A stretch of 64,000 bases of DNA from Klebsiella phage LPKP23: sequence record PV112478.1; one strand, written 5' to 3'. The position numbers were made by a program, and so were the translations under genes. Of this stretch, positions 31,858-34,041 are shown piece after piece. How positions within the stretch are numbered: the stretch's first letter is position 1; every line of letters starts with the position of its first letter. The notes beneath the pieces are model-generated. The model made no database searches and was not told the origin of the DNA. It was given only the letters and a program-made list of their open reading frames with translations.

Positions 31858-34041
31858 TTAGATGATCTGATTCAAGTGTGCGGTACGTGTGCTCAATACC
31901 CTTCCCCGGAAGAGTAGCTCTTTACTCCGCCAGTAGTCGAGATGTTTATCAATGTTCATGCAAACAAAGCAATGATAACTCTGTGGGAATTTCTTCTCCC
32001 CTTTGAGTTCACGTAAACGTCCTAACGCCTGAACGTTCGCGTTCGGTGAGTCAATCGCAACGGTCAGGTAGGCTTGCGTCAAGTTAGGGATATCCACCGC
32101 GGTACCGGATTTACCAATCGTACTGAAAATGATATCCGAATCCAGTAACAATTGATAATCGTCTCCTGATGTAAAGGAGTTGATCACCAGTTCCGGGAGA
32201 CGTTTCCTGAAGAACGTGGCCAGGCGCTGGCACATCTCAATAGTCGCCGAGAAGATTAACAGCTTATGTTCCCTTTTCCTCTTCTCTAACCAGTTATCCT
32301 TGGTGTAGTCAAAAAGCGATTCTTGCCACCGCTGCTCTCGTTGCCTGTCTGCCATGATCCAGGCTTCGTACGTCGTATGACTGTACGACCCTTGACCTCC
32401 GACGACTTTCGCTTTCTGCCAATCCTTCAGATTATACTGGACTTTCACCAGATCGATATACCTACTTGGTTGCCCGCCATTTCGCCGCAGTTTTTTCGGT
32501 AAGAAGGTTTCGTAGATGAAAAGTTGAAAATCCATCTTAGCCAATAACGTAGCGGTCAAGTAGATCTTTTTCGGAACATGCGAATAGAGATCAGAGACAA
32601 AGTTCGCATGGATCTCTTTATGCGCTTCATCAATGATAACCAGACCTATCCCCAGAAACTCCCAGAGATCTCTCGGATTGATATCTTCGCAATCAGTCCC
32701 AACCACTCTCCCATTATTCCAGTTCTTGTAAAAGTCCCTCAACGTGGCTGTGGAAATGAAAATCGCCTTAACATTATCAATGCCGGTGGTCTTCGCTTCC
32801 CGTAATAAACGATAGAGCTTTACACAACCACAACACGATCGAACCTCTTCCGGTTTTAGATTGAGTTTAGCGTAAAACTCCGGTATCCATCTATCCTCGT
32901 AGCCGCCGAGTGTTACCACCGCAAAACGGGTTCCGTTATTCTTTGCCATCGCCAATGAACAAGCCGTGTTATGGGTCACGATATAGTCATCGGTGATGTA
33001 GAGATGTTCAGGGTCATCAATCATGATGCACTGAGTGGCCTCAGGCTCGCGTTCTTCGATTGAAGTAATAGCTAACCGCTCTTGGGTGAAATCGACACGT
33101 AATGTGTCCCTTGCCTCATCTAAGTAGGCAAGGCCACCATAAGCCCGTGCGGTATATTGTATTGCCTCCAACAATTCAAGGCCCCCTAAACTAACCGTAA
33201 ACTCCATTTCGTCCTGCGAGGTCTCTGTTACCATTCGGAAGTCGGCAGGTAAAGTCTGACCGAGAATGAGCGGCACAGAGAAAGAACTTTCCCCTAGCCG
33301 GTCTTTTATTTCGCGTGTCGTGATAACTTTATCTTGCTGCTCCTCGTTTTCCTGTACTGACCAGAGATGTTCCGGGTTAACATCAGTATATCGTCCATCA
33401 GCAAAGTGGATACGCCAGACGTCGGTCACGCCCTGCGGGAAGACCCCGATGACAGAAGCGAGGCGTCCCTTAGGTGTCACGACCTGTTGCCCGACTTTCA
33501 TCTCGCCCATGGTTAGCCAACCGCCAGGGACTCTGATCTTAGAAGAAAGCGTCTGAGCCTTACCAAACCCAGGCTCCGCGGTGATCGCTTTCTGGATACC
33601 GGGGCCCGAACCGAATTCAATAATCGGCACCTGGTTATCCCACGGTGTGAAGTCCATCTCAAACTCAAACTTCACCGGTTCGTACATCGGGACAACATCG
33701 ATTTCAAACGTGCAGCCATTCCATTGGTATTTTTCCGCTTCCTGTTTAAAGCGTTCCAGTGTGTTGATGTGGAAACACGTCTCTTCCGTTTCAAGGTCTC
33801 GGCGTGCGTAAACCTTGGTAGGTTCCATTCGGAATCGCCCACGTTTCTTCACTAAGTTTTTCTCAATAAAGTGCTCAGTGAATTGTCGACGGAATTGTCG
33901 GCCTTTGGCGGTATAGGCAAAAACGGAAAAGTAGTGGCTATATTGCGTGATACGTAGATCCAATGTCTTAGCCCTCACAGGTGATAATCGAATCTCGTAG
34001 ATTCTTTTCTCTAGGTATAGGTCTCTATAGGAATTACTCAC
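31858..34041 (-). CDS. SF2 DEAH-box helicase interrupted by a mini-intein in the P-loop
   Basis: Split Walker A AEPGFGK / TACSLAMA. Walker B LVIIDEAHK. Motif VI QALGRLRE. Hint-domain blocks fall between the Walker A halves. Confidence 0.6.
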   Translation of the reverse strand: MSNSYRDLYLEKRIYEIRLSPVRAKTLDLRITQYSHYFSVFAYTAKGRQFRRQFTEHFIEKNLVKKRGRFRMEPTKVYARRDLETEETCFHINTLERFKQEAEKYQWNGCTFEIDVVPMYEPVKFEFEMDFTPWDNQVPIIEFGSGPGIQKAITAEPGFGKAQTLSSKIRVPGGWLTMGEMKVGQQVVTPKGRLASVIGVFPQGVTDVWRIHFADGRYTDVNPEHLWSVQENEEQQDKVITTREIKDRLGESSFSVPLILGQTLPADFRMVTETSQDEMEFTVSLGGLELLEAIQYTARAYGGLAYLDEARDTLRVDFTQERLAITSIEEREPEATQCIMIDDPEHLYITDDYIVTHNTACSLAMAKNNGTRFAVVTLGGYEDRWIPEFYAKLNLKPEEVRSCCGCVKLYRLLREAKTTGIDNVKAIFISTATLRDFYKNWNNGRVVGTDCEDINPRDLWEFLGIGLVIIDEAHKEIHANFVSDLYSHVPKKIYLTATLLAKMDFQLFIYETFLPKKLRRNGGQPSRYIDLVKVQYNLKDWQKAKVVGGQGSYSHTTYEAWIMADRQREQRWQESLFDYTKDNWLEKRKREHKLLIFSATIEMCQRLATFFRKRLPELVINSFTSGDDYQLLLDSDIIFSTIGKSGTAVDIPNLTQAYLTVAIDSPNANVQALGRLRELKGEKKFPQSYHCFVCMNIDKHLDYWRSKELLFRGRVLSTRTAHLNQII
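32968..33558 (-). mobile_element. Mini-intein (Hint domain, ~197 aa, no homing-endonuclease-sized insert) within the helicase
   Basis: Block A-like GGWLTMGEMKVGQQVV. Block B GRYTDVNPEHLWSV (TxxH). Blocks F and G QCIMIDDPEHLYITDDYIVTHN, followed by Thr/Cys (TAC). Excision restores GFGK-TACSLAMA. Boundaries are uncertain by a few residues, and the N-terminal residue is not Cys. Confidence 0.5.

Follow-up and report, generated by a model that had tools for sequence, protein, structure and literature searches.

The DNA analysed here (the window) is a stretch of 64,000 nucleotides (64 kb) from Klebsiella phage LPKP23, sequence record PV112478.1. On its minus strand, at positions 31858-34041, there is an open reading frame (ORF) for a helicase, which has 727 codons counted from the GTG at 34041 and whose stop codon occupies 31858-31860 in the ORF list. 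The Walker A motif of this protein is interrupted by a segment that is very probably a class 3 intein and a former LAGLIDADG homing element, located at GFGK/T (the slash marks the point of insertion) in a jumbo-phage helicase. The window belongs to a jumbo phage of ~300 kb, and the DNA of the region 31858-34041 is 98.0-98.6% identical to that of nine public Klebsiella jumbo phage genomes, which include vB_kp_MJ359, KpLz-2_45 (genus Siatvirus), KpXa_1 and KpSz_1. Along the ORF, the motifs GFGK (amino acids (aa) 158-161), AQTLSS (from aa 162), NPEH (aa 222-225), TQCIM (aa 336-340), VTHN (aa 355-358), TACSLAMA (from aa 359) and IIDEAH (aa 469-474) were located. The features of the locus are given below, where pN/pS is the ratio of nonsynonymous to synonymous polymorphism and residues of intein blocks are designated by block and position (B:12, F:4).

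31858..34041, minus strand: helicase precursor ORF (ORF list, nucleotide identity to genes named 'DNA helicase', phrog_16)
33559..33963, minus strand: N-extein, aa 27-161 (aligns with intein-less orthologues up to GxGK; pN/pS = 0)
33559-33579, minus strand: first part of Walker A, A-E-P-G-F-G-K, aa 155-161, at the end of the N-extein
32968..33558, minus strand: very probable class 3 intein, 197 aa, Ala1...Thr-His-Asn197 (absent from 24 orthologues; PDB matches; AlphaFold2/Foldseek)
33256..33558, minus strand: N-terminal part of the HINT (Hedgehog/intein) domain, aa 162-262, with block A (AQTLSSKIRVPGGW) and block B (NPEHLW)
33367-33369 and 33361-33363, minus strand: block B residues His225 (B:10) and Trp227 (B:12), respectively; Asn222 is B:7
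33082..33255, minus strand: endonuclease remnant, aa 263-320, LAGLIDADG-derived according to its alignment to the full-length inteins P0004 and P0007
32968..33081, minus strand: C-terminal part of the HINT domain, aa 321-358, with block F (TQCIMIDDPEHLY) and block G (YIVTHN)
33028-33030, minus strand: Cys338 (F:4), the only cysteine within the intein
32968-32976, minus strand: Thr356 (G:5), His357 (G:6) and Asn358 (G:7)
32965..32967, minus strand: Thr359, predicted to be the +1 splice nucleophile and also the Thr of Walker A (GFGK-T)
31861..32967, minus strand: C-extein, aa 359-727, with motif II IIDEAH and the C-terminal helicase lobe (pN/pS 0-0.03)
32620-32631, minus strand: DEAH of motif II (sub-threshold Pfam DEAD and ResIII matches span the DEAH region)

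A whole-protein database search yielded 61 orthologous helicases, 37 of which bear an intein and 24 of which, Klebsiella phage FBKp24 among them, show an empty, uninterrupted GxGK/T site. In the FBKp24 orthologue, which has no insertion, the sequence across the site is ...AGFGKTACSLAMAKNNGTRF... (in the boundary comparison, ...ITAQAGFGKTACSLAMAKNNGTRF...). In LPKP23 the insertion covers aa 162-358 (197 aa, nucleotides (nt) 32968-33558, minus strand), between Lys161 and Thr359 of Walker A. These boundaries cannot be shifted, because the residue that follows Lys161 is Ala and not Thr, and the one that precedes Thr359 is Asn and not Lys. No other choice of boundaries would regenerate the empty site, and aa 162-358 is therefore its exact extent. 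A first-pass annotation, made from the sequence alone, had proposed that removal of about 197 aa restores GFGK-TACSLAMA. This was found to be exact in view of the 24 orthologues with GxGK/T, and the alignment with the intein-less FBKp24 protein fixed the junctions where that annotation had put them. The empty-site orthologues rule out the slightly different boundaries that it had also contemplated, and of the two residues suggested for the N-terminal junction, Ala or Ser, it is Ala162 that occupies this position.

The same comparison bears on whether the element might be a class 1 intein with slightly shifted boundaries, in which Ser166 or Ser167, for example, would be the N-terminal nucleophile. 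There are indeed Ser residues 4-5 positions inside the insertion (AQTLSS), and a boundary shift had been raised in the first-pass annotation; however, the segment from AQTL to THN is entirely absent from the 24 empty-site orthologues and no shift restores GxGK/T. In addition, position 1 is Ala instead of an initiating Cys or Ser, and F:4 is Cys, whereas Asp is usual at F:4 in class 1 (PMC2807308). Due to the presence of Ala1 and to the fixed boundaries, this assignment was set aside as extremely improbable.

The identity of the insertion was assessed by sequence and by predicted fold. A phmmer search against PDB sequences matched the class 3 intein 6BS8 (M. smegmatis DnaB) with E = 1.4e-8, with both the N- and the C-terminal halves aligned; further matches were the class 3 intein of M. 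chimaera DnaB1 (6RIX/6RIY) and the gp41-1 intein of a phage. Exhaustive searching of 1.84 billion cluster representatives with HMMER provided 9681 relatives with E <= 0.001, 4820 of them with E <= 1e-10. A word-indexed homologue search with the intein alone gave two partial matches only, and the whole-protein and exhaustive representative searches were needed. As judged from these alignments, the similarity to inteins is far beyond chance. An AlphaFold2 model of the intein, built from a 24-sequence alignment, reached a predicted local distance difference test score (pLDDT) of 91.9 and a predicted template modelling (TM) score of 0.88. When this model was compared with the PDB using Foldseek, the top matches were the three class 3 intein structures 6BS8, 6RIX and 6RIY (target TM scores of 0.82-0.88), and the best 50 of the 54 matches with E <= 0.001 were all HINT folds (inteins, bacterial intein-like domains and hedgehog autoprocessing domains). 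On the basis of the alignments and of the model, aa 162-358 is classified as a HINT-fold intein. Together with the empty-site orthologues, this bears out the initial proposal that a Hint intein splits the helicase P-loop; the orthologues do not keep the segment as a helicase insertion devoid of Hint blocks. No second intein of the same family was detected within the 64-kb window, either by tblastn or with a hidden Markov model (HMM) of 38 helicase inteins run against the six-frame translation.

Class of the intein and proposed splicing

Class 3 inteins are defined by a residue other than Cys, Ser or Thr at position 1, the triplet formed by Trp at B:12, Cys at F:4 and Thr at G:5 (WCT), and Thr or Ser at +1 (PMC2807308; PMC5050341). 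They mostly occupy the ATPase P-loops of helicase-like proteins (PMC2807308; PMC5050341), and at the 'classic' site of P-loop inteins the insertion separates the P-loop Lys from the Thr that acts as nucleophile (PMC5050341). The LPKP23 intein has Ala162, Trp227, Cys338, Thr356, His357-Asn358 and Thr359 at these positions. In the HMMER alignment to M. smegmatis DnaBi1 (Msm DnaBi1) the equivalent residues are paired, namely His225/His65, Trp227/Trp67, Cys338/Cys118, Thr356/Thr137, His357/His138 and Asn358/Asn139.

Conservation of these residues was examined in an alignment of 24 intein sequences (alignment A1, 23 relatives plus the window copy). His64, Trp66, Cys177, Thr195, His196 and Asn197 (intein numbering) were invariant, as were the G and K that precede the intein, and Thr at +1 was nearly so. 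Among 274 related intein copies, Cys was present at F:4 in 269, Thr at G:5 in 268 and Thr or Ser at +1 in 266; position 1 was other than Cys, Ser or Thr in 257 copies, and GK stood directly before the intein in 216. All 37 intein-bearing database orthologues, like the window copy, have Thr at +1. Position 1 is A, G, S, E or F among the inteins of the helicase orthologues, everything else being fixed; this variability is what would be expected if position 1 is not catalytic. B:7 also varies among the relatives, as reported for class 3, and is Asn222 in the window. Hence, from the block B given in the first-pass annotation (TDVNPEH) the NPEH part holds, but its Thr is not the canonical block B Thr. 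The residue after the C-terminal block, left there as Thr or Cys, is Thr359.

The splicing type had initially been described as class 2 or class 3. A KlbA-type intein (class 2) would agree with the presence of Ala162 at the N-terminus, since KlbA inteins also begin with Ala, and class 2 is the other class without an N-terminal nucleophile in the published scheme (PMC2807308). However, class 2 inteins by definition lack the WCT triplet, whereas Trp227, Cys338 and Thr356 are present here and invariant in the relatives; class 2 also requires Cys at +1, where this protein has Thr, and the nearest solved relatives are class 3 inteins and not KlbA. We consider class 2 highly unlikely and exclude it because the WCT triplet is present, which leaves class 3 as the part of the initial description that stands, on account of this triplet and of Thr at +1.

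The splicing steps proposed for the LPKP23 intein follow the experimentally established class 3 pathway (PMC2807308; PMC6195587; PMC7664689), in which the block F Cys was established as the obligate first nucleophile for the DnaB intein of mycobacteriophage Bethlehem (MP-Be) and for Msm DnaBi1 (PMC2807308; PMC6195587). Cys338 would attack the Lys161-Ala162 peptide bond, assisted by His225 and Trp227 from block B and by Thr356 from block G, to give a branched thioester at block F. The N-extein would then move by transesterification onto the side-chain hydroxyl of Thr359, cyclisation of Asn358 would free the intein, and an O-to-N acyl shift would form the Lys161-Thr359 peptide bond, thereby regenerating the Walker A sequence AEPGFGKT. 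Thr359 would thus act as splice nucleophile first and as the P-loop Thr afterwards. ATP binding and hydrolysis by the helicase would be possible only once splicing has restored a continuous P-loop, so that the helicase of LPKP23-type phages would have no intact ATP site until spliced.

Among four near-identical phages, pN/pS was 0.08-0.15 for the intein and 0-0.03 for the exteins, values based on small counts, since the intein shows only 14-33 differences per pair. Purifying selection on both intein and exteins implies that the helicase is in use and, as a consequence, that it must be spliced. Splicing is expected, and this expectation comes from the conserved residues and from selection. That basis, the small number of substitutions and two further points weigh against an active class 3 intein. 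Neither the complete ORF nor the isolated insertion matched a Hint, intein or LAGLIDADG family when scanned with Pfam and NCBIfam, which in this respect gave only a spurious, sub-threshold match to SH3-C_UBE2O. Moreover, the class 1 intein gp41-1 failed to splice when the WCT triplet was grafted onto it (PMC7664689), and for that reason the triplet alone is no guarantee of activity.

These points are partly shared by another explanation, according to which the insertion would be a splicing-dead relic, either kept as a permanent domain or lying in a helicase gene that is decaying, with the precursor as the final product. The degenerate endonuclease shows that the element is in decay, curated domain libraries recognise no splicing domain in it, and its splicing is a prediction from sequence. 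Nevertheless, with Walker A interrupted between Lys and Thr the ATP site would be broken, and yet the exteins show the very low pN/pS indicated above; the intein itself is constrained to the extent given, its catalytic residues are all intact and invariant, and shorter natural derivatives of 143-148 aa retain the same blocks. A relic is considered improbable.

Somewhat less remote, although still unlikely, is that splicing is conditional and serves as a helicase switch, and/or that the endonuclease remnant is kept under selection as a structural module. By analogy with what has been shown for mycobacterial DnaBi1, the thiol of Cys338 could be reversibly blocked by oxidants, by zinc or by pairing with the extein residue Cys361 (+3). 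If splicing were conditional, the helicase would be activated at a time set by the condition of the infected cell.

Endonuclease remnant and history of the intein

When the window intein was aligned with those of P0004, P0007 and P0010, both LAGLIDADG motifs of the latter fell in alignment gaps. Pfam searches of the window intein gave no PF14528 or PF05204 match, and both families were found in full-length relatives. The part that persists, aa 263-320, aligns to the LPxxY..TF and SST...QYLVRSLGGIAKL...DYRV segments of P0004 and P0007. Its second part (approximately aa 283-320) corresponds to the C-terminal part of the endonuclease domain, and the Pfam LAGLIDADG_3 match in P0004 spans the SST...DYRV segment. 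According to the AlphaFold2 model, this remnant of ~55 aa is folded, with the order helix-strand-helix-strand-strand and pLDDT values of 74-96. In intein motif nomenclature, we take it to correspond to endonuclease block H. It follows that the absence of a homing-endonuclease domain, as first annotated, is correct with regard to function (the motifs are gone and Pfam finds no match) but not to structure, since a folded remnant stays; the term mini-intein, in its minimal sense, does not apply to an element that retains ~55 aa of the endonuclease.

Inteins at the same site in the orthologues are of several sizes. Full-length forms of 343-356 aa contain both LAGLIDADG motifs (Pfam LAGLIDADG_3 and Hom_end), partly deleted forms have 198-285 aa, and minimal forms have 143-148 aa (P0039, P0061 and P0062). 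The nearest relatives of the window copy are the inteins of P0004 and P0007, with 73-74% identity over the HINT parts. In four helicases with a full-length intein, the exteins are 97-100% identical to those of an empty-site helicase (Serratia phage Haymo versus Moabite, for instance), whereas identity to the nearest relatives with an occupied site is only 66-72%. This sequence pattern indicates that these four inteins probably represent recent, independent homing invasions.

The window copy has a different history. All its close relatives share the 197-aa form, the nearest empty allele is 85% identical, and the G+C content at third codon positions (GC3) is 0.53 in the intein and 0.55-0.56 in the exteins, so that GC3, used to look for foreign base composition, gave no signal of recent acquisition. 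Because the 197-aa form is present in all close relatives, the empty allele is distant and GC3 is host-like, the window copy is an old, fixed intein without endonuclease and not a recent arrival. We propose that it descends from a LAGLIDADG-bearing intein of ~350 aa that homes into the same site in related phages, and that it has become fixed in the phage lineage and has lost ~160 aa of the endonuclease. With the endonuclease lost, it would not home by itself and would spread only vertically or by recombination.

Evidence of recombination comes from four close genomes, among which the intein is a mosaic. Nucleotides 518-726 of the gene are KpSz_1-like and nt 859-1050 are KpLz-2_45/MJ359-like; the mosaic tract (gene nt 518-1050, window positions 32992-33524) lies inside the intein. 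The density of variable sites is 5.6% in the intein versus 1.2-2.5% in the exteins. The mosaic and the denser variable sites together imply that intein alleles recombine between co-circulating phages.

A single deletion giving rise to one clade of ~200-aa inteins was considered and rejected, since most of these inteins have full-length ones as nearest relatives. In related inteins of ~196-215 aa, each nearest relative is full-length, yet the same helix-strand-strand unit is retained; judging from these sequences, the deletions look independent. Two other inteins of ~198 aa without endonuclease, P0005 (L005 4001-6103) and P0064, are mutual nearest relatives, with 76% identity over the HINT parts. 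Both are inserted in a P-loop, yet their hosts differ: P0005 interrupts an orthologue of the window helicase, and P0064 a Helicase_C protein of 865 aa. This suggests either that an endonuclease-less intein moved between genes or that parallel deletions occurred. As a whole, the orthologue set (empty, full-length homing, part-deleted and minimal) constitutes a natural series for the class 3 homing cycle in jumbo phages.

Host gene, neighbourhood and annotation

The GTG at 34041 has no obvious ribosome-binding site, and the TTG at 33963 has GAGG 9 nt upstream. The latter start agrees with the 701-aa gene calls (P0003 and the MJ359 coding sequence (CDS)) and with the 504-aa CDS of FBKp24. The CDS of KpLz-2_45 in RefSeq starts 45 codons 3' of the TTG at 33963, that is, 71 codons after the first start of the ORF. 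Of the two candidates, the TTG at 33963 is the more probable start of the helicase gene, and the precursor would then have 701 aa.

As regards the function of the host protein, phrog_16 ('DNA helicase') matches it with E = 7e-30, and GFGKT (once spliced) and IIDEAH are both present. The spliced sequence scores 22.4 with Pfam DEAD (cut-off 26) and 21 with ResIII (cut-off 22.5), both sub-threshold, and precomputed PF00270 or PF04851 matches exist for some orthologues. A search of the spliced helicase against PDB sequences found no informative relative. The DEAH motif II, the sub-threshold DEAD/ResIII matches and phrog_16 lend weak support to the label of superfamily 2 (SF2) helicase given in the first-pass annotation.

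The neighbours of the helicase gene are two genes for RNA polymerase beta-type subunits upstream and a GNAT-type gene downstream. One further feature separates the helicase gene from the upstream polymerase subunit gene:

34073..34104, minus strand: terminator-like hairpin followed by a T-run

FBKp24 has an annotated terminator at the corresponding position. The ORF directly upstream (655 aa, 34108-36075, minus strand) corresponds to a gene to which the FBKp24 and KpLz-2_45 annotations give the name 'RNA polymerase beta subunit'. A second RNA polymerase beta gene precedes it, an organisation typical of the split multisubunit RNA polymerase of jumbo phages. Elsewhere in the window, nine tRNA genes are clustered at 15940-17422 (minus strand), with the specificities Ser, Asn, Asp, Gly, Gln, Tyr, Arg, Leu and Met, and ~3 kb from this cluster ARAGORN predicted a tRNA with the anticodon TTA (20413-20496, minus strand), a putative ochre (UAA) suppressor.

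The intein is mentioned in no annotated record among the nine near-identical genomes, in which the gene is named just 'DNA helicase', and our search of a literature library found no paper there linking an intein with FBKp24, KpLz-2_45, Haymo, Moabite or MJ359. Several PHROG profiles match only the N-terminal half of the intein (aa 152-236, nt ~33334-33588), some of them together with a few flanking P-loop residues. These are profiles for the terminase large subunit (phrog_19299, phrog_36964 and phrog_15), a DnaC-like helicase loader (phrog_50) and DNA primase (phrog_510). Because the matches are to the intein only, these profiles evidently contain intein-bearing members and could give false functional calls. 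In public phage records, genes with relatives of this intein are annotated as 'DarB-like antirestriction', 'HNH endonuclease', 'exonuclease' or 'DNA gyrase subunit A'. In Salmonella phage SA002 such a gene is split into two CDSs ('RAD2/SF2 helicase 1 | 2'), and in records of Stx2a-converting phages the intein-relative region is without any annotated feature. For engineering purposes, a class 3 intein of enterobacterial phage origin that is compact and combines a lone cysteine with Thr at +1 could be useful as a scaffold.

Comparison with known inteins

Relatives of the window intein were detected by tblastn in 373 of 50,697 phage records, including those of mycobacteriophages (Catera), Stx2-converting phages, Vibrio and Aeromonas phages and the phiKZ-like phage PhiPA3. 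The match to the genome region of Catera spans the N-terminal half of the window intein.

The experimentally proven class 3 mini-inteins Msm DnaBi1 (6BS8) and MchDnaB1 (6RIX/6RIY) are the closest by both sequence and fold. They begin with Ala and end in His-Asn, as the window intein does, and they share with it the WCT triplet, a +1 nucleophile with a hydroxyl group, insertion in the P-loop of a helicase ATPase and the lack of an active endonuclease. The P-loop Ser of DnaBi1 has the same dual role as nucleophile and Walker A residue (PMC6195587). However, their host is the bacterial replicative DnaB and not a phage DEAH-type helicase, they comprise 139-145 aa without an endonuclease remnant (197 aa in the window), B:7 is Asp instead of Asn, and identity to the window intein is ~17% over the structural alignment. 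DnaBi1 has, in addition, a second cysteine (Cys48) that forms a regulatory disulfide, whereas the window intein has a single one.

The class 3 prototype, the MP-Be DnaB intein, shares with the LPKP23 intein the class 3 signature and a phage helicase-type ATPase as host, as do other class 3 inteins of phage helicases or ATPases, mostly located at P-loops (PMC2807308); the intein of mycobacteriophage Catera is one of these. The MP-Be intein differs in starting with Pro, in its full LAGLIDADG endonuclease and size (341 aa), and in residing in an actinobacteriophage instead of an enterobacterial jumbo phage. The Haymo protein HAYMO_291 (P0010) and the metagenomic P0004 and P0007 carry direct evolutionary relatives at the same site and with the same blocks; unlike the window copy, these have 343-356 aa and both LAGLIDADG motifs, and they appear to be actively homing.

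The cyanophage gp41-1 intein is likewise a compact HINT fold in a phage helicase and was also detected by structure. Its sequence matched with E = 5e-5 in the WCT-engineered version (6RIZ) and with E = 0.0086 in the native one (6QAZ), but it belongs to class 1 (Cys1 and Asp at F:4) and is naturally split. The PolB intein previously reported in the jumbo phage MIJ3 is unrelated in type. The archetypal members of class 3 are inteins that interrupt the P-loop of helicase-type ATPases in phages and prophages (PMC2807308; PMC5050341). The window intein is a so far unannotated addition to this well-known family, and it leaves the current understanding of inteins unchanged.

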